Of a stretch of 64,000 nucleotides of DNA, positions 11,556 to 21,892 are shown one piece after another. The translations under genes were made by a program, and so were the position numbers. Under the pieces are notes generated by a model, which saw only the letters and a program-made list of their open reading frames with translations, was not told where the DNA came from and ran no database searches. The stretch lies in NCBI GenBank assembly GCA_965206595.1, contig OZ242214.1, positions 4,160,001 to 4,224,000 on the forward strand, in the 5' to 3' direction. How positions within the stretch are numbered: the first letter of the stretch is position 1; each line of letters opens with the position of its first letter. This DNA is from Candidatus Latescibacterota bacterium. Lineage in GTDB: Bacteria; Latescibacterota; UBA2968; UBA8231.

Positions 11556-12436
11556 AAACCCCGATCAGGCGTAGATGGCGGTCGGCCGGCGCGGCGATCG
11601 CGTGCGGTGCCTTTCTGATTTGCGGGCCGAACGGCGCCGAAGCCCAGGTGACCATCGGCGATATCGCCCCCGAGTTCGAGCTCGAAACAGTGGACGGTCA
11701 GTTCGTCTCGCTGAGCGACTTCCGCGACGAAAAGGTTGTCTTTCTCAATATTTTGGGGAACACCTGACCGTACTGTATCGCGGGGGCCGCGAATTCCGAA
11801 GCAATATGGCAGGACTACGGGGGCGACGGCTTCATCGCACTCGGCATCGACATCTGGAACGCCAGTCCCGCTGGCGTCCAGGCAGTATGGATCGACGACG
11901 GGCTGGCCACCTACCCGCTGCTCGTCAACGGTTCCAGTGTCGGCAGCGACTACGGCGTCGGGCAGGACCACTACTTCGTGATCGATCACGAGGGGATCGT
12001 CCGCTACCGGTCCGGCTCCGGCCCGCTCGGCGAACGCTTCGTCGACGGGGAGATCCGCGAGGCAATCGAAGCCTCTCTCGAGGACCTCGCCGACTTCCTG
12101 GAGGATGAGCAAGCGGTGGAGGAAGTGACCACGGAGGTAGCGGCGGGGCCACAGCTTCCTGCCCGGTTCGAGGTGGGGCACGTATACCCGAATCCCTTCA
12201 ATTCCGAAACCACGCTCTCGTTCACGGTGAGGGCGGCAGGATCGCTGACCCTGATGTTGTACGATCTGCGCGGCCGGGTGGTACGCGACTGGTCGGGGCA
12301 TTTCGAGGCCGGAAGGAACTCCCTGACCTGGGACGGCCGTGACCAGGACGGAAATGCTCTTGCCAGCGGGGTGTACATCGCATCGGCGCGGCAGGGGGGC
12401 AGCGCGATAGCGCGCAAGATCACCCTGCTGAAGTAG
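11552..12436 (+). CDS. Secreted AhpC/TSA-redoxin selenoprotein (UxxC) with a T9SS type-A-like/FlgD-Ig C-terminal domain, 294 aa, Sec at codon 72
   Basis: ORF-track pieces ending at 11767 and starting at 11978 are in one frame with only TGA 11765-11767 between them. Readthrough gives VFLNILGNT-U-PYC...FIALGIDIW...YPLL...FVIDHEGIVRY (a complete redoxin fold), then YPNPFN...YDLRGR...WDGRD..G...ASGVY...KITLLK. Confidence 0.88.
11768..11809 (+). promoter_or_regulatory. Bacterial SECIS-like element
   Basis: Upper stem TCGCGG (11778-83) / CCGCGA (11787-92) with a GGG loop 16 nt after the UGA; lower stem CCGTAcTG / CAaTATGG. Confidence 0.75.
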
Positions 12437-12471: not shown

Positions 12472-13221
12472 CTACTCCACCAGGGACTCGCGGAGGCTTG
12501 CGATCTGCAGGTCGGAAAGCCCGGCAGAGCGGGCGAACCCCTCGGCCCCTCCGTACCGGGAGTCGAGGAAGCCGAGGACCTTGAGCATGCCTGCGGGCGG
12601 GCAAAACTCCCGCTGGTAGTCGCGCCAGTCGCGAAGTTCGGCTCCGTCCTCGACCTCTGGCGGCTCCGCCTGCCAGCGTTCCCACAGGTACCTCGCAGTC
12701 AGGCCGTAGTCCGCGGCGATGGTCTCCTCAGGCACTCCTGCCATCCTGAGAAGCAGGGCGCTGATCACACCGGTGCGGTCCTTGCCCCCGGCACAGTGGT
12801 ACAGGGCGGGCAGGGCTTCGGCCTCGGCCAGAGTCGCCAGCACCTGGCCGACCTGGCGAGGACGATGCTCCAGCCAGGAGGAGTACGAGCCGAAGATCTT
12901 GTCCGCGGGGGTGCCGACGGCCATGGAATAGGGGATCGGCTCGTCGCCTACGAGGTTGTGGTGGCGGTAGGTCACCTGCCCGGAGTCGGCGAAGACGTTG
13001 GGCCGGTCCGCAAGCTCCTGGGACTGGCGCAGGTCGATGACGGTGCGCAACCCGAGCCCGAGGAGGGTCTGCTGGTCGTCGGCCGTCAGCCGGTGCATGC
13101 TGTCGGCGCGGAAGAAGGTGCGCCACCGCACCCGGCGCCCGTCCGCCGTGGGATAACCTCCTGAATCCCGGATGTTCCAGGCCCCTTCCATTTCGATTCT
13201 GCGACTGGGTTCCGCGCTCAT
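12472..13221 (-). CDS. Tyrosine-protein phosphatase (Y_phosphatase3 / PtpB-like)
   Basis: N.RD.GGY, VIDLR and P-loop HCAGGKDRTG. ATG 13221 follows AAGGGGGAG. Confidence 0.9.
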   Translation of the reverse strand: MSAEPSRRIEMEGAWNIRDSGGYPTADGRRVRWRTFFRADSMHRLTADDQQTLLGLGLRTVIDLRQSQELADRPNVFADSGQVTYRHHNLVGDEPIPYSMAVGTPADKIFGSYSSWLEHRPRQVGQVLATLAEAEALPALYHCAGGKDRTGVISALLLRMAGVPEETIAADYGLTARYLWERWQAEPPEVEDGAELRDWRDYQREFCPPAGMLKVLGFLDSRYGGAEGFARSAGLSDLQIASLRESLVE

Positions 13222-13373
13222 TGCTCCCCCTTTCCGTGTGTGGGGTTGGTAGTTTCTACAGTACGAAAAATGGCCGGGGCCGAAGTAGCCCGCAGCGGTT
13301 TGTTCGAGATCGGTGAAGGCCTGGGGATTGAGAGCGCGGTGTTCGGGCATGCTCCGAGGTCTCCCTGCTGCCG

Positions 13374-14933
13374 CTACAGCACCCTGCTCGTCAGACGTAT
13401 CTCCACCCCTTCGAACCCTAGCACCTCGTAGCAGGTCCCCCCGGTACAGGCCAGCCCGGTGCGCCGTTTTCCCGCGAACAGGTTCGCCGTGTGGGCGTCG
13501 CGGAACAGCCAGCTCGTCCCCAGGGCCCACCAGTAGGTCACCCCCGACTCGGAGGCCCCGATCTCCAGCGGGTCGTTGGACCTCTGGAGCTGCAGCGACC
13601 AGGTCCAGGCCGGATAGCGGGTTACCTCGGCCGCGGCATGCAGGTTTTCGTAAGGGAACCGCCTGCTGCCGAAGCGGCGGTCGACGTCCTGGAACTGCAG
13701 GTCCGCGGCGACGGAGTAGCGCCTGCCCGCGGACCAGTCCCACCGGGTGCCGGCGGTAATCCGCCGCTCGTTCTGGAGTATGCGGCTGCGCGCGAAGTCG
13801 AGGAAACCCTGCCCGTGAAACGTCTCGCCGACCGGGGAATCGAGCTGCAGGAAGTACTCGCTCAGCGACTTCGCCTCCTCCCCGGGACGGGAGCCCCTGC
13901 GGGTGGCCAGGTTCCAGGCGGCGATAAGCCCGACCTGCCGCGGCAGGGCCCAGGTCAGCTCCGCCTGGATTCCGGTTTCGTCGTCAGGGAGCAAGGTGTG
14001 CGTCTGCCGGTTGAGGAGGAAGGCCTCGTGCTCCCGGATCAGGGTAGGCGGGTTGTTGATCGTGGGAAAGTTGAAGTCGTCGTAATCCTTGAGCTCCAGG
14101 CTCAGCCCCCAGGCGCCGCCGGTGAAGGTGCTGGCGAGGTAGAGCCCCCGCGCGTGCTCGCGGTCGAGGGAGAACCAGCTGTCGAGGGCCGGATCGATAC
14201 GGGCGTACTCGCCGTACAGATCGCCGTACCAATCCCGCAACCCGAGCGCTTTCAGCAGGGAACCGAAACGGACCCGGGCATGGGTGGTGGCGCCGCGCTC
14301 TTCGCCGTCGAAATCGAGCACCCCCATGCCGACCTCGAATTCCGCCCAGGGTCGGGCGCTGAAGGCCCCCCCGGAAACGCGCCCGCCGCGGCGCTCGGGG
14401 CCCTTCTGGCCGGGGGCGAGCTCGCTGTCCACCGGGCTGCCGGTGAGCAGCAGCAGGTCGACGTCTCCCCGGCGGTAGCGGACCTGGAAACCGCCGAGGT
14501 CCTGCGTGATCTGGTAGCGCCTCCGGGAGACGCGGTTTTCGGTGACGACTCCGGGAAGCTCGAAGGCGTGCAACAGCAGTCCGCTGCCGACGAGGGTGAG
14601 GTAGGTCCCCGCGATCGCCTCGAAACCTCCCTGCCGGTAGGAGAGGGAGCGCTGGGCGAGATGGAAGTAGTCGCGCCCGCCTTCGCTGGAGCGGAACGCC
14701 TCGCTGCGCAGGCTGGCGAGAAAACCTTCGGTTTCAAAGCCAAAATTCAGCTGCTGGTAGACCGTGCGCAGATCGCCGGGCTCCGACCCGGGCAGGTTGC
14801 CGAGTTGGTACTCGTGATGGGCGGTCAGCTGCGGCTGGGAAGTAGCAGGTCCCGCGGCGGCCAGCATGCCGGCCAGGAACGAACAGGCGAGTCGCCGGAG
14901 GGGGGATGGAGCTTTATCTGCTTTCTGCGGCAT
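13374..14933 (-). CDS. DUF6029-like outer-membrane beta-barrel protein
   Basis: Signal peptide, amphipathic strands, ELKDY...NNPPTLIREH and C-terminal GKRRTGLACTGGTCYEVLGFEGVEIRL (CxGGxC). Confidence 0.7.
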   Translation of the reverse strand: MPQKADKAPSPLRRLACSFLAGMLAAAGPATSQPQLTAHHEYQLGNLPGSEPGDLRTVYQQLNFGFETEGFLASLRSEAFRSSEGGRDYFHLAQRSLSYRQGGFEAIAGTYLTLVGSGLLLHAFELPGVVTENRVSRRRYQITQDLGGFQVRYRRGDVDLLLLTGSPVDSELAPGQKGPERRGGRVSGGAFSARPWAEFEVGMGVLDFDGEERGATTHARVRFGSLLKALGLRDWYGDLYGEYARIDPALDSWFSLDREHARGLYLASTFTGGAWGLSLELKDYDDFNFPTINNPPTLIREHEAFLLNRQTHTLLPDDETGIQAELTWALPRQVGLIAAWNLATRRGSRPGEEAKSLSEYFLQLDSPVGETFHGQGFLDFARSRILQNERRITAGTRWDWSAGRRYSVAADLQFQDVDRRFGSRRFPYENLHAAAEVTRYPAWTWSLQLQRSNDPLEIGASESGVTYWWALGTSWLFRDAHTANLFAGKRRTGLACTGGTCYEVLGFEGVEIRLTSRVL

Positions 14934-14980
14934 CGTAGTTTCTCGACATAAGAAGACAAGCGATTCGGCGGATAGGCTCA

Positions 14981-15766
14981 ATGGAGCGAAGCGTTTTCGA
15001 GGGACTGGATGGGAAGCAGGCGGGGCGGCGTTCGGCCAAACCGCGGTCGGCAGGCCTTACCATGGTCGTCGACTGGGGAATGGGATCGAACCGGCAGAGG
15101 GACCTGCAGGATGCCGGCGGTCCCTTCATCGATTTTGCGAAGGTGGCGGTCGGAGTTTCCCGGCTCCTTCCCGGCTCCCTGCTGCAGGGCAAGATCGACT
15201 CCTATCTCGCCGGGGACATAGAGCCGTTTCCGGGAGGACAGTACCTGGAGTATGCGGAAACGGAAGGGAAGCTCGAGCGCTATTTCGAGGCGGTCGCCGA
15301 GGCCGGTTATCGCTGGGTCGAGGTCTCCGACAACCTGCTGCCTGCCACCGCGTCCTGGAAGGAGACGACCATCCGCAGGGCCCGGGAGGAATTCGGCCTG
15401 AACGTCCTCGGGGAGGTCGGCAGGAAGGAGGGGCTCGAAAACTCCATACCCCTGTCCGACAACGCCAGGATATGCCTCGAAGCCGGGGCCCAGCTCATCC
15501 TGCTGGAGGCGGCCGAACTGCTGGCGGGCGACAGCGCCACATTGGCAGCGGTCGAGGATATCGTCGTCGCGGCCGGTCTCGAAAAGGTGATGTTCGAGCT
15601 TCCCGGTCCCTGGATCGGGGGGGTGACCGCGAGCGACGTCCATCGCATCCGGCGCGAGCTGATCGACCGCTATGGAACCGAGGTCAATTTCGGCAACGTC
15701 GCTGCCGACGACCTTATGTCGCTCGAGGCTTACCGCCGCGGCCTGGGCATCAACGCCGGCAGCTGA
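14981..15766 (+). CDS. comA: Phosphosulfolactate synthase (ComA family)
   Basis: KPR..GLTMVVD.G, IDFAK, VEVSD, EVG.K, FELP and G.EVN.GNV...D..SLE..R.GL. Confidence 0.85.
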   Translation: MERSVFEGLDGKQAGRRSAKPRSAGLTMVVDWGMGSNRQRDLQDAGGPFIDFAKVAVGVSRLLPGSLLQGKIDSYLAGDIEPFPGGQYLEYAETEGKLERYFEAVAEAGYRWVEVSDNLLPATASWKETTIRRAREEFGLNVLGEVGRKEGLENSIPLSDNARICLEAGAQLILLEAAELLAGDSATLAAVEDIVVAAGLEKVMFELPGPWIGGVTASDVHRIRRELIDRYGTEVNFGNVAADDLMSLEAYRRGLGINAGS

Positions 15767-15839
15767 TCGGCCGGGGGCGAACCGCAATGACACCCAGTCG
15801 ATCCGCGTCCGGGTCAGCGAACCCCGCAGGCAGCAGTTC

Positions 15840-16685
15840 ATGAGGTCGGCCACCGCCTTCGCCCCAGGCAGCATTTCCGGTCTCTTCAAGATCATCGCCG
15901 ACGCCGACCCGGAGAAGATGCACTCCCTCGGGCTCAGCTTCACCGTTGCCGAGGGGGCCGAGGTCACCGTTTCGGAAGCCTCGCGCACCGCCGTCGCCTT
16001 CAACGGAGAGGAGATCCGCTTCCCGACCGTGGCGACCCTGGCAAGGCGGCTGAGCGACCGCGATTTCCACGTCGCCGTCGAGTCGGCCCTGCCGCTGAGC
16101 TGCGGATTTGGCCTGAGCGGGGCCTCCGCCCTCGCCGCGGCGTACGCCATCGATCGCCTGCTCGGCCTCGGCATGGCCGCAGAAGAGCTGGCACTGCACG
16201 CCCACGTGGCCGAGGTGGAGAACCTGACCGGGCTCGGGGACGTCTGCGCGCAGTACCACGGCGGATGCCTGGTCAAGCTGGCCCCCGGGTCTCCGCTGGT
16301 GGCACAGCGCCTCGGAGTGGCGGAGGGGGCGCCCATCCATTTCCGGTATTTCGGGCCGATAAGCACCCGGGAGGTGCTGTCCGATCCTCACCGCCGCGCC
16401 TCGGTGAACCAGGCCGCGGACGCCGCCCTGCGGCAGCTGTCCGGGCTCACCGACCGGGACGAGGTACCCATCGCCGAATGCGTGCGCATCTCCAGGCAGT
16501 TCGCCGGGGACAGCGGCCTGATGACCGATCCCCGGGTCAGGGAGGCGGTCGCTTCGGTGGAAGCCTCGGGAGGGGCGGCCTCGATGATCATGCTCGGGCA
16601 CGCCGTCTTCAGCACCGTCCCGTTCGCAGGCTCGACCGAGACGGCGCTGGCGCTCGACCCCGCCAGGGTGCAGGACGGACCATGA
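15840..16685 (+). CDS. Archaeal-type pantoate kinase (GHMP family, PoK)
   Basis: AFAPG.ISG.F, S.G..F, LP...GFG.SGA.AL, AH.AEV...TGLGDV.AQ..GG and SM.MLG..VF; adjacent to PPS. Confidence 0.85.
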   Translation: MRSATAFAPGSISGLFKIIADADPEKMHSLGLSFTVAEGAEVTVSEASRTAVAFNGEEIRFPTVATLARRLSDRDFHVAVESALPLSCGFGLSGASALAAAYAIDRLLGLGMAAEELALHAHVAEVENLTGLGDVCAQYHGGCLVKLAPGSPLVAQRLGVAEGAPIHFRYFGPISTREVLSDPHRRASVNQAADAALRQLSGLTDRDEVPIAECVRISRQFAGDSGLMTDPRVREAVASVEASGGAASMIMLGHAVFSTVPFAGSTETALALDPARVQDGP

Positions 16686-17419
16686 CCGACGTTCCCGAAA
16701 CCCACCCGCGCTACGAATCGCTGCGGCTGCGGGACGCCGTTGTCGCCGGCGTCGACCGCGGGGTGACCTCGGTACACGGGCTGATCGCCCACGGCCGCGG
16801 CGAGGCGTTCGACTACCTCCTCGGGGAGCGCACCCACGATTTCGCCCGGGAAGCGGTCGCCGCGGCCGCGGCCATGCTGGCGACAGCGCAGAGGCCGGTG
16901 CTGTCCGTCAACGGCAACGCCGCGGCTCTGGTCGCGGAGCGGATGGCGGCGCTCGCTGCGGCCCTCTCCTGCCCCCTGGAGGTCAACCTGTTCCACAGAT
17001 CGCACGAGCGCGAGCGGGCCATCGAAAGGCTGCTGGTCGAAAACGGCGCCACCCGGGTGCTGCTGCCTGCAGGGGACACCTTTCTCGAGGGGATCGACTC
17101 CAACAGGCGCTACGTCCACCCGGATGGGATTCACCGGGCGGACGTGGTCTTCGTGCCCCTCGAGGATGGCGACCGCTGCCAAGTGCTGCGCGCCGCGGGC
17201 AAGGAGGTGGTGACCGTCGACCTCAACCCCCTGTCGCGCACGGCGAAGTTGGCCAGTATCTCCATAGTCGACAACGTCGTCAGGGCGATGCCCATGCTGA
17301 TCGGGGCGGTGGACGCTGCGGCCTCCGACCCGGAAGGGAGCCGGCGTCTGCTCGGTGCGTACGACAACGGCCGCGTCCTGGAGGCGGCGGAGCAATGCAT
17401 GAGGAACCGATGGGAGTGA
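16682..17419 (+). CDS. Archaeal-type phosphopantothenate synthetase (4-phosphopantoate--beta-alanine ligase, PPS)
   Basis: VP..HPRYESL..R, GLIAHGRGEAFDYLLGERT, SVNGN.AAL, EVNLF.R, ADVV.VPLEDGDR, DLNPLSRTA and DN..RA. Confidence 0.92.
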   Translation: MTDVPETHPRYESLRLRDAVVAGVDRGVTSVHGLIAHGRGEAFDYLLGERTHDFAREAVAAAAAMLATAQRPVLSVNGNAAALVAERMAALAAALSCPLEVNLFHRSHERERAIERLLVENGATRVLLPAGDTFLEGIDSNRRYVHPDGIHRADVVFVPLEDGDRCQVLRAAGKEVVTVDLNPLSRTAKLASISIVDNVVRAMPMLIGAVDAAASDPEGSRRLLGAYDNGRVLEAAEQCMRNRWE

Positions 17420-17588: not shown

Positions 17589-18575
17589 ATGAAACTGTAC
17601 CCGGACCACGAGCTTCCGACCCGCGAAGATGTGGTCGCCGCTCACCGCTTCATCGCCCCCCACCTGCCCCCGACTCCGCTGATCAAGGCCCATTCCCTGT
17701 CGCAGCGGCTCGGGTTCGACTACTACGTCAAGTGCGAGAACGTGCAGCCGGTGGGAGCCTTCAAAGTCCGCGGCGGCGTCAACCTGCTGGGGAACCTCGA
17801 CGACGGCGTCAAACGCCTCGGGGTGGTCACGGCGAGCACGGGAAACCACGGGCAGTCGATCGCCTTTGCCGGCGGCTTGTTCGGCATCCCGGTGATCATC
17901 TACGCCCCGGAGAGGAACGCCAATCCGGTGAAGATCGAGGCGATGCGCGCCCTCGGCGCGGATGTGCGGCTTTTCGGGCGGGACTTCGATGAGGCGCGCG
18001 GGGAGGTCGAGGGGGTCGCCGCGGCCGAGGGCCGGCGCTACGTCCACTCGGGCAACGAGCCGCTCCTGATCGCAGGAGTCGGCACCATCGGCCTGGAGAT
18101 CGCCGACGCCCTCCCCGGCGTCGAGGTGATCATCGCCCCGGTAGGGGGAGGCAGCGGCGCCACCGGTATCGCTCTGGCCGTCAAGCAGCAGCGGCCCGGG
18201 ACGCGCGTCATCGGCGTCCAGTCCGCCTCGGCACCTGCCTGTTGGGAGGCCTGGAAGAAAGGGCGACTGGAGGTCGAGTGCGCGATGAATACCGAGCACG
18301 AGGGCTTGGCTACACGGGTGCCGTTTGCGATGACCATGCAGCTCATGTGGGAGCTGCTCGACGATTTCGTGCTCGTCACCGACGAGGAGATCAACGCGGC
18401 GATCCGCCTGCTGGCGAGGCACACCCGGCAGTTGGCGGAGGGGGCCGGGGCCGCGGCAACGGCCGCCGCTGTCAAGCTGCAGGAGGAATTGCAGGGGAAG
18501 ACGGTTGCCGGGGTGCTGAGTGGGGGCAACCTGCCGCTGGCGCGCCTGGCCGGGCTCTTTTCCGGGGAGTCCTGA
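17589..18575 (+). CDS. Threonine/serine dehydratase (PLP fold type II)
   Basis: K.EN.Q..GAFKVRG, STGNHG, PVGGGSG, EGAGAA and SGGN. Confidence 0.9.
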   Translation: MKLYPDHELPTREDVVAAHRFIAPHLPPTPLIKAHSLSQRLGFDYYVKCENVQPVGAFKVRGGVNLLGNLDDGVKRLGVVTASTGNHGQSIAFAGGLFGIPVIIYAPERNANPVKIEAMRALGADVRLFGRDFDEARGEVEGVAAAEGRRYVHSGNEPLLIAGVGTIGLEIADALPGVEVIIAPVGGGSGATGIALAVKQQRPGTRVIGVQSASAPACWEAWKKGRLEVECAMNTEHEGLATRVPFAMTMQLMWELLDDFVLVTDEEINAAIRLLARHTRQLAEGAGAAATAAAVKLQEELQGKTVAGVLSGGNLPLARLAGLFSGES

Positions 18576-18664: not shown

Positions 18665-19702
18665 ATGACACCAGCGACAACACGCGAGCAGATACGGGCA
18701 AACCTGGCGGAAATCCCCCGCATCAGGTGGTCGCACATCCCGACGCCGCTGGAAGAGTGGAAAAGGCTGCGGAGCAGGATCGGCTGCCCGCGCCTGCTGG
18801 TGAAGCGGGACGATACCACCGGGCTGGCCTACGGAGGCAACAAGTCGCGGCACTTCGAGTTCGAGATGGCGCACGTGAGGGGCCAGGGCTTCGACACCCT
18901 GATCTGCATAAACAACTTCCACTCCAACCACGCCAGGGTCGCTGCCGCGGCATGCGTCAGGGCCGGGATCCGCTACATTCTCGTATCCGTGGGGGAGACG
19001 GAGCGCCCGCTGCAGGGGAACCTCCTGCTGGTCAAGCTGATGGGAGGGGAGATCCACCGCCTTTCCGCCGGGGAGGATTCCTCGGCCTGTGCCAAAGCCA
19101 TTGCCGCCAGGGTGCGGGGCCAGGGAGGGAATCCCTACATCCTCAACGAGGACTGGTTTCCCCAGATCATCGGGACCATCGGCTTCGTCGAGGCAGGCCT
19201 CGAGCTGATGTCCCAGCTCGCCGCGTACGGTGTCGAGCGGATTCACGTCTGGGGGCTGGTCGGCGCTTCCCTGCCGGGACTGGGTCTGCTGGCGAAGAAC
19301 CTCGGGCTCGACTGGAAAGTCTCGATGGTTCTCTACAGCCCCGGCAACGTCGACGAGGTCCGCGAGGGGATGGTGAACCGGTGCAGGCAGGCCGCGGAGT
19401 TCATGAAGCTGCCGCTTCCACTCGACCCCGAAGACGTCGAGATCGTCGACGGCTTCTCCGGACCGGCGTATGCCGCTCCGACCGATGCTGCCTTCGAGGC
19501 GATCCACCTCGTGGCCCGGACCGAGGCGGTGATCCTCGATCCCAACTACACCGGGAAGTCGATGTCGGCGCTGATCCACCGCATCAGGTCGGGTGGGTTC
19601 GCAGAAGATCGGACGCTCCTCTTCCTGCACTCGGGAGGCCTGCCGCAGGTGTTCGCCTTCAACGAGGAGCTGGCAGCCTGGAGTGGCCCGGGGGTGGACT
19701 AG
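18665..19702 (+). CDS. D-cysteine desulfhydrase / ACC deaminase family PLP enzyme
   Basis: PTPL, KRDD.TG...GGNK.R, SNHAR, LDP.YTGK and LFLHSGG. Confidence 0.85.
   Translation: MTPATTREQIRANLAEIPRIRWSHIPTPLEEWKRLRSRIGCPRLLVKRDDTTGLAYGGNKSRHFEFEMAHVRGQGFDTLICINNFHSNHARVAAAACVRAGIRYILVSVGETERPLQGNLLLVKLMGGEIHRLSAGEDSSACAKAIAARVRGQGGNPYILNEDWFPQIIGTIGFVEAGLELMSQLAAYGVERIHVWGLVGASLPGLGLLAKNLGLDWKVSMVLYSPGNVDEVREGMVNRCRQAAEFMKLPLPLDPEDVEIVDGFSGPAYAAPTDAAFEAIHLVARTEAVILDPNYTGKSMSALIHRIRSGGFAEDRTLLFLHSGGLPQVFAFNEELAAWSGPGVD

Positions 19703-19936: not shown

Positions 19937-21892
<1,956 letters not shown>

Follow-up and report, generated by a model that had tools for sequence, protein, structure and literature searches.

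The window analysed here is a stretch of 64,000 nucleotides from a Candidatus Latescibacterota bacterium (contig OZ242214.1, positions 4,160,001 to 4,224,000). It carries an overlapping pair of genes that resemble pantoate kinase (PoK) and phosphopantothenate synthetase (PPS), the two middle enzymes of the archaeal route to coenzyme A (CoA). An original prediction, made from the letters alone, had placed this pair at 15840-17419, recognized four PPS motifs and proposed an archaeal CoA pathway in a bacterial genome. The pair consists of the following features:

15840..16685, + strand: PoK, a pantoate kinase-like GHMP kinase of 281 amino acids (PF00288, NF040725, 6jbc)
16682..17419, + strand: PPS, a 4-phosphopantoate--beta-alanine ligase (phosphopantothenate synthetase) of 245 amino acids (PF02006, PRK13761, 3wdk)
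16682..16685, + strand: ATGA, the start/stop overlap of PoK and PPS, as read from the sequence

At their maximal extents the open reading frames (ORFs) around the pair run from 15672 to 16685 and from 16265 to 17419, both on the + strand. The starts at 15840 for the kinase and at 16682 for PPS were set by homology and by an alignment of 27 relatives. Both ORFs are intact and of full length. The ATGA overlap implies translational coupling, and a purine-rich GGACGGA stands immediately 5' of the PPS ATG. The PPS translation holds HPRYESL, GLIAHGRGEAFDYLLGE, VPLEDGDR and DLNPLSRT. Coordinates, overlap and all four motifs were borne out.

PPS matched PF02006 over profile positions 2-174 of 176 (E 1.3e-62, 210.9 bits, cut-off 26.4) and scored above the cut-off of the NCBIfam model PRK13761 (319.5 bits, cut-off 227). 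Residues 1-236 aligned to the PPS of Thermococcus kodakarensis (3wdk) with an E of 9.6e-63; in the motifs the two proteins differ only at HPRYeSL/HPRYwSL, DYLlGE/DYLiGE and LSRt/LSRs. Conserved between them are the blocks GLIAHGRGEAFDYL, SVNGN, VPLEDGDR, VTVDLNPLSR and IVDN, which do not vary among 14 bacterial sequences either. PPS is a single-copy gene in the host genome.

For the kinase, pantoate kinase was the best profile, the best PDB sequence and the best fold, as expected for the PoK type that had been predicted. The GHMP N-terminal ATP-binding domain was recognized by PF00288 (E 5e-13, 49.5 bits, cut-off 22.3). Among NCBIfam models pantoate kinase NF040725 scored best (152.8 bits) and led the next other GHMP family, homoserine kinase (32.3 bits), by 120 bits. 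A GFGLSGA block is invariant or nearly so across 28 aligned kinase sequences. The closest PDB sequence was the pantoate kinase 6jbc (E 2.1e-16), followed by mevalonate kinase (2.4e-4). An AlphaFold2 model built on 28 sequences had a predicted local distance difference test (pLDDT) score of 95. In Foldseek this model retrieved 6jbc at the top (E 7e-23, TM 0.84, rmsd 2.9, 24% identity), and other GHMP folds followed with E 2e-14 or worse and TM 0.75 or less. A grouping of the kinase with other GHMP families, which the original prediction had named as a possible refutation, was ruled out, 6jbc being closest by sequence and by fold. In 39 of the 80 best loci obtained with PPS, PoK stands directly upstream of it, including all four archaeal-labelled loci (42-44% identity).

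The pair is part of a bacterial chromosome. The host genome was assembled as a single closed contig of 7,053,161 bases and encodes a bacterial RpoB (1823 bits). The surroundings are bacterial as predicted: they include a protein with a sorting domain of the type IX secretion system (T9SS), DUF6029, Y_phosphatase3 and an ABC-F ATPase. The GC content across the pair (0.66-0.72) resembles that over the window (0.62-0.70), in line with the GC-rich composition noted earlier. In two congeneric genomes 20 kb around the pair are collinear, with 70-97% protein identity. Contigs from public runs of three studies tile the locus in pieces which overlap by 25-30 nucleotides. One holds an upstream ComA-like gene and the 5' end of PoK, one the PoK/PPS junction, and one the 3' end of PPS with two downstream genes for pyridoxal phosphate (PLP) enzymes. 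The third piece reaches the start of the ABC-F gene in contig X1 and extends into it in X4 and X5. Continuity across the flanks, a check proposed with the prediction, was thus found in three studies, and each gene is joined to its bacterial neighbour. Compared with the two congeners dN/dS was 0.21-0.22 for PoK and 0.28-0.29 for PPS; neighbouring genes had 0.13-0.20. Collinearity, independent contigs and purifying selection together make two explanations unlikely. First, archaeal DNA may have been joined to a bacterial contig during assembly or binning, a caveat raised with the original prediction; nothing was found in favour of it. With one 7.05 Mb contig, a GC content like that of the surroundings, a gene order kept in two congener assemblies and the nearest relatives of both proteins in bacterial genomes, the probability of such an artefact is negligible. 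Second, the pair may be a decaying or silent relic of a transfer in a cell that imports CoA precursors such as pantetheine. The coaBC gene, which looks frameshifted in the assembly, would fit a relic. However, the ORFs are intact, dN/dS resembles that of the neighbours, the pair is kept in 18 genomes and 14 genera of a sample of 41 related genomes, and PanB, CoaD and CoaE are also kept. We regard a relic as a very slight chance.

In contigs X4 and X5, from two other studies, 9 bases are missing at 17299, near residue 206 of PPS. This difference is in-frame and removes three codons in the variable C-terminal part; relatives have 243 amino acids compared with 245 here.

The gene content of the host was examined by profile searches of the whole genome (marker-gene completeness 92.9%) with 14 control genomes. 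PanC (PF02569), CoaX (PF03309) and CoaA were not found in the host genome, while the searches were positive in 9, 7 and 10 of the 14 controls, respectively. Thus the check for panC, coaA and coaX that accompanied the prediction returned none of them. A search for type II pantothenate kinase (PF03630) was uninformative, its control being silent in all genomes. Present are PanB (C1:1688107-1688847 of the host genome), the CoaB domain of CoaBC, CoaD and CoaE. With these enzymes present and PanC, CoaX and CoaA absent, the pair fills exactly the two missing steps.

Among the 41 relatives PPS was encoded in 18 and PanC in 22; CoaX was found in the same 22 genomes. Not a single relative (0/41) combines PPS with PanC/CoaX. 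Neither route was detected in one genome, G007, which is 90% complete and has a ComA gene at a contig end. PanB was found in all 41. The original prediction had left open whether the pair replaces or supplements panC/coaX. Replacement is supported by the strict exclusion and by the missing PanC, CoaX and CoaA; supplementation is not. A coexisting bacterial route that was overlooked in the host could hide behind the marker completeness below 100% and the silent PF03630 control. Yet PanC, CoaX and CoaA were negative in a one-contig genome with positive controls, and no relative carries both routes. We consider coexistence hardly credible.

In PanC-type relatives panB and panC are adjacent, e.g. 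at G028:C207:15152-16823, G027:C2:1193045-1194702 and G017:C12:48612-50213.

Of the 18 genera of the host family, f1, that were sampled, 14 have the pair. The f1 genera without PPS are g14 (0/31), g16 (0/8), g7 and g10. In a phylum-wide sample of 168 genomes PPS was found in 33, i.e. in the host, in 31 of 75 other f1 genomes and in 1 of 92 from the remainder. Outside the family, PPS without PanC was seen in three genomes labelled Gammaproteobacteria, with locus records under the title 'chromosome: 1', in one Verrucomicrobiales metagenome-assembled genome (MAG) and in one Poribacteria genome.

The Methylomirabilia-labelled MAG G237, which holds a PoK-PPS locus (L067), has a PanC-like stretch at C84:3898-4564. 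It lies in three frames which cover profile positions 2-83, 105-146 and 209-267. This could be a decaying panC caught in mid-replacement, or the result of sequencing errors.

A protein search returned 7,998 relatives. The best 120 had 60-93% identity; those named among them came from bacterial MAGs labelled Gemmatimonadetes, Planctomycetota, Gammaproteobacteria and Poribacteria, and some were already annotated as 4-phosphopantoate--beta-alanine ligase. When each species was represented by a single genome, a relative was encoded at 519 of the first 600 pattern matches. The best 80 loci were labelled Poribacteria (55), Pseudomonadota (8), Latescibacterota (6), Gemmatimonadota (2), Methylomirabilota (1), Verrucomicrobiota (1), unlabelled bacteria (3) and archaea (4). 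Accordingly, 76 of these 80 carry bacterial labels, from six phyla. The two closest (93% and 86% identity) are labelled Latescibacterota.

The history of the two routes within the family was read from an RpoB tree that covered 32 genomes, with three sister families as the outgroup. Family f1 formed one clade with a support of 100. PPS-type genera stand at its base and in both main branches, and the six PanC-type f1 genomes form one nested clade (SH-aLRT 97). Parsimony on this tree required two changes, a gain of PoK/PPS at the base of f1 and a reversal in the nested clade. The sister families and the nested clade of the host family thus have the classical PanC/CoaX route.

A PPS tree was calculated from 91 rows after removal of 40 near-identical sequences (quick IQ-TREE run, mixture model, unrooted). 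All bacterial-labelled sequences fell into one clade (SH-aLRT 96), together with four archaeal-labelled loci and three unlabelled representatives. Next to it in the same polytomy stands a clade (support 99) in which one representative stands for a Methanomethylovorans cluster. The archaeal side of this tree is mostly unlabelled: 2 of 10 cluster representatives are named (Methanomethylovorans, Bathyarchaeia). The four archaeal-labelled loci inside the bacterial clade carry the labels Woesearchaeota, Nanoarchaeota and Methanosarcinales. The Methanosarcinales-labelled locus (G041; L091, L109) comes from a genome of 1.1 Mb; its phylum-mates have 0.5-2.1 Mb, and PPS was found in 1 of 61 sampled, which makes the archaeal-labelled members of this clade occasional carriers. 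These small-genome archaea may as easily have been recipients as donors. PF02006 was positive only in the 4 archaea among the 14 control genomes, and the ultimate archaeal origin of the PPS family rests on these controls and on established knowledge. Because the host PPS lies inside a mostly bacterial clade, the gene may have come, in the last transfer, from another bacterium. Of the 'old inter-domain transfer' that had been predicted, the age stands, given the 14 of 18 genera, the position at the base of f1 in the RpoB tree and the host-like composition. A direct inter-domain origin is not supported in that form.

Profiles, structure matches and genome content agree that the pair constitutes the PoK/PPS route in a bacterium, as predicted. 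Starting from what was observed of gene identity, intactness, selection, genome content and distribution, we consider it highly probable that a working PoK and PPS replace PanC and pantothenate kinase, that the pair is ancestral to the family and vertically inherited, and that one nested clade reverted to PanC/CoaX. CoA synthesis would then proceed as follows. PanB would make ketopantoate, which a reductase with no gene assigned would turn into pantoate. PoK would phosphorylate pantoate to 4-phosphopantoate, and PPS would ligate 4-phosphopantoate with beta-alanine to 4'-phosphopantothenate. The ordinary bacterial enzymes CoaBC, CoaD and CoaE would complete CoA. The common ancestor of the family would already have possessed the pair, PanC and pantothenate kinase having been displaced, and PanC/CoaX would have returned later in the nested clade.

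Several points weigh against this reading. The catalytic activities of PoK and PPS are assigned from their homology with the enzymes of T. kodakarensis, and we know of no enzyme assay of any bacterial PoK or PPS. The kinase is far under the pantoate-kinase equivalog cut-offs (152.8 compared with 380 bits for NF040725, 71.8 compared with 500 for NF041122), and PPS is narrowly below the cut-off of NF041123 (291 compared with 300 bits), a model built for archaeal members. The marker completeness of the host genome is only 92.9%. Its coaBC is split over two frames (C1:1595076-1595623), with a shift near 1,595,195-1,595,207 within the CoaB domain. This may be an indel error of the assembly; if it were a real lesion, the pathway would be broken downstream of the pair. 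No ApbA-type ketopantoate reductase was found in the host genome, and neither PanD nor a group II PLP decarboxylase for the supply of beta-alanine. The order of evolutionary events is proposed by parsimony on a single-gene tree, RpoB, from a quick search. In the unconstrained PPS tree the f1 sequences are scattered within the bacterial clade, and the host genus is placed next to five Gammaproteobacteria (support 85, not starred). An approximately unbiased (AU) test did not reject f1 as a single PPS clade (p 0.42), the tested group having been taken from the family code and chosen after the PPS tree was known. Finally, the pair is co-oriented with ComA-like and PLP enzyme genes, no terminator is predicted between any of them, and co-expression with another pathway is possible.

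The two gaps in supply were followed through the relatives. PanD is missing in 37 of 41, including 19 of the 22 PanC-type genomes; it was found in 4 of 41, and all 16 genomes of families f2-f4 were negative. Since PanC-type relatives lack it too, a loss of PanD tied to the PPS route was rejected; the gap is shared by users of both routes. The ApbA-type reductase is absent in the host genus and in g2, g6, g8 and g18, and present in nine other PPS-type genera. A link between its loss and a dehydrogenase gene found in the operons of some relatives was also considered; no clean link emerged across the PPS-type genera.

The genes around the pair are listed below:

11978-12436, upstream of the pair: a small protein that ends in a sorting domain of the FlgD-Ig/T9SS type
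12472-13743 (- strand) and 13374-14981 (- strand), upstream: a Y_phosphatase3 tyrosine phosphatase; a protein of 535 amino acids with a DUF6029 C-terminal match
14981..15766, + strand: a ComA-like protein (phosphosulfolactate synthase family, PF02679), 73 nucleotides upstream of PoK
17589..18575, + strand: a threonine/serine-dehydratase-like PLP enzyme (PF00291), 169 nucleotides downstream of PPS
18665..19702, + strand: a PLP enzyme of the ACC-deaminase (1-aminocyclopropane-1-carboxylate deaminase)/D-cysteine-desulfhydrase family (CuyA/XcbE models), followed by an ABC-F ATPase

The ComA-like protein matched PF02679 (E 3.8e-47, 161.2 bits, cut-off 25.2) and reached 144.8 bits with TIGR03849 (cut-off 280). 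The first PLP enzyme matched PF00291 (E 2.5e-78) and stayed below every NCBIfam equivalog cut-off; a copy with 60-66% identity lies beside or near PPS in several relatives. The second PLP enzyme scored 226 bits with CuyA (NF052482) and 202.7 bits with XcbE (NF052537), both below the cut-off of 450 for each model. Among the loci compared, its gene was beside the pair only in the two congeners. The gaps between genes are 73 to 169 nucleotides, with 89 nucleotides between the two PLP genes. A scan for promoters and terminators gave 0 promoter-like sites and 1 terminator-like site, the latter inside the 3' end of the first PLP gene; this is within chance expectation.

In several relatives PoK and PPS stand within a tight operon of the order ComA, HAD phosphatase, PoK, PPS, D-2-hydroxyacid dehydrogenase, HpcH/HpaI aldolase and PLP enzyme. 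The operon, or parts of it, was seen in L056 (576-6484), L105/G019 (7011-12877 in L105), L083, L050 and L115/G009 (14253-19359 in L115). The HAD, dehydrogenase and aldolase genes are absent at the host locus; the best homologue of the dehydrogenase lies elsewhere in the host genome (C1:2106374-2107174, 52% identity). This neighbourhood suggests a different assignment, namely that kinase and ligase take no part in CoA synthesis and have a different substrate, within a sulfonate pathway to which ComA and the PLP enzymes also belong and which in relatives includes the HAD phosphatase, the dehydrogenase and the HpcH-type aldolase. The five closely spaced, co-oriented genes without a predicted terminator, the recurrence of whole or partial operons and the kinase scores under the pantoate-kinase cut-offs speak for it. 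However, linkage to ComA and PLP genes is dissociable in both directions. The PanC-type relative G015 (L110 3429-6155) has ComA, a methyltransferase, a PLP enzyme and an HDOD protein in a row without PoK-PPS, and its PLP-HDOD end matches L056. Conversely, bare PoK-PPS pairs with neither ComA nor a PLP gene occur in five genomes of the family (G004, G010, G012, G020 and G023; 20 kb context) and in loci of other phyla. Further, a sulfonate pathway would leave the complementarity with PanC and CoaX in 41 genomes and the source of phosphopantothenate unexplained, and the residues invariant in bacterial PPS are shared with the T. kodakarensis enzyme. We judge this assignment very improbable. The arrangement in G015 indicates that the ComA/PLP linkage stands alone, separate from the CoA route. 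Probably ComA, HAD phosphatase, dehydrogenase and PLP genes constitute a separate locus of sulfolactate or cysteate metabolism into which the pair was inserted.

A replacement of PanB by the HpcH-type aldolase was rejected, PanB being present in 41 of 41 genomes.

A variant would make PoK-PPS part of the larger conserved operon of ComA, HAD phosphatase, dehydrogenase, aldolase and PLP enzyme, with a reduced form of an undescribed cofactor pathway in the window. If so, the partner enzymes could supply the reduction of ketopantoate, for which an ApbA-type enzyme is missing, or beta-alanine in place of PanD; another option is that their product is a sulfonated relative of pantothenate. We consider this unlikely.

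Two side observations concern the neighbouring genes. In the closest congener (G001:C11:980941-981656; L017, L099) the ComA profile match is in two pieces (2-137 and 149-239), as a frameshifted gene or a pseudogene would give; PoK and PPS are intact there. At window positions 19976-20500, which encode motifs of the ABC-F ATPase, the depth of contigs rises 10- to 60-fold, and joints and loose ends are numerous. Recruitment of contigs from other organisms by conserved ABC sequence would account for this; the rise is no property of the host genome.

Replacement of PanC and pantothenate kinase by PoK and PPS in a bacterium has a precedent. Thomes and Lescure (2020; PMC7883664) described PoK and PPS in sponge-symbiotic Entoporibacteria (Candidatus Poribacteria), which are without PanC, PanK and the classical ketopantoate reductase and have CoaBC, PPAT and DPCK of bacterial type; the route was tied there to the symbiotic lifestyle. 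The host shares this configuration: PoK and PPS, neither PanC nor PanK, no ApbA-type reductase and bacterial downstream enzymes. Its PPS is 56-62% identical to that of Poribacteria and its PoK 52-57%, where present within the locus, and the PPS sequences belong to one clade. The host lineage differs, its close relatives having been labelled Latescibacterota or Gemmatimonadetes by the depositors. Furthermore, PoK is directly upstream of PPS in only 18 of the 55 Poribacteria loci, whereas the pair on the host side is always adjacent and overlapping, and here the distribution was mapped on a family tree with one gain and one reversal. No paper on PoK/PPS in Latescibacterota- or Gemmatimonadota-labelled bacteria was found in the literature searched, with the limit that the supplements of PMC7883664 may show relatives beyond Poribacteria. 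The main text of a paper on sponge Latescibacterota (PMC12993501) does not mention pantothen-, pantoate or coenzyme A. The rarity in bacteria which the original prediction had assumed does not hold, and its novelty is weakened: PPS is widespread, 76 of the 80 best loci are bacterial-labelled, and the route is in print for Entoporibacteria. A pair that is widespread and vertically inherited in bacteria, the outcome which the prediction itself had said would remove the novelty, is largely what was found. The host case extends known biology; it is not a new kind of system.

With T. kodakarensis (6jbc, 3wdk) the pair has in common the PPS motif blocks, the PoK fold (TM 0.84) and the implied order of phosphorylation before condensation. 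In contrast, PoK is only 24% identical to 6jbc, and the downstream enzymes of the host are bacterial, including CoaE. The classical route via PanC and CoaX (pantothenate kinase type III) or CoaA (type I) likewise turns pantoate, beta-alanine and ATP into 4'-phosphopantothenate overall; it differs by the reversed order of reactions and by unrelated folds, and it was not found in the host genome.

The order of these two middle steps was once proposed as a marker that separates Bacteria and Archaea. After the Poribacteria, the host family is a second bacterial lineage with this order, and a well-resolved one. The two routes behave as modules that are interchangeable and strictly exclude each other, and a module of archaeal order would be able to persist, fixed, through the history of a bacterial family and to be exchanged again later. 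The PPS clade used by bacteria is now mostly bacterial, with six phylum labels; its archaeal-labelled members are only small genomes in which the gene is rare (1/61). Organisms with the PoK/PPS route would be unable to phosphorylate imported pantothenate and should be unable to use it from outside. Annotation pipelines and metabolic models which score 'pantothenate/CoA biosynthesis incomplete' for such genomes would be wrong.

Longer, apparently fused members of the PPS family were also seen: P0129 (521 amino acids), P0138 (529), P0160 (408) and P0125 (333). One member of the P0129 cluster is a Bathyarchaeia protein with the name 3-methyl-2-oxobutanoate hydroxymethyltransferase, which suggests that P0129 is a fusion of PPS and PanB.

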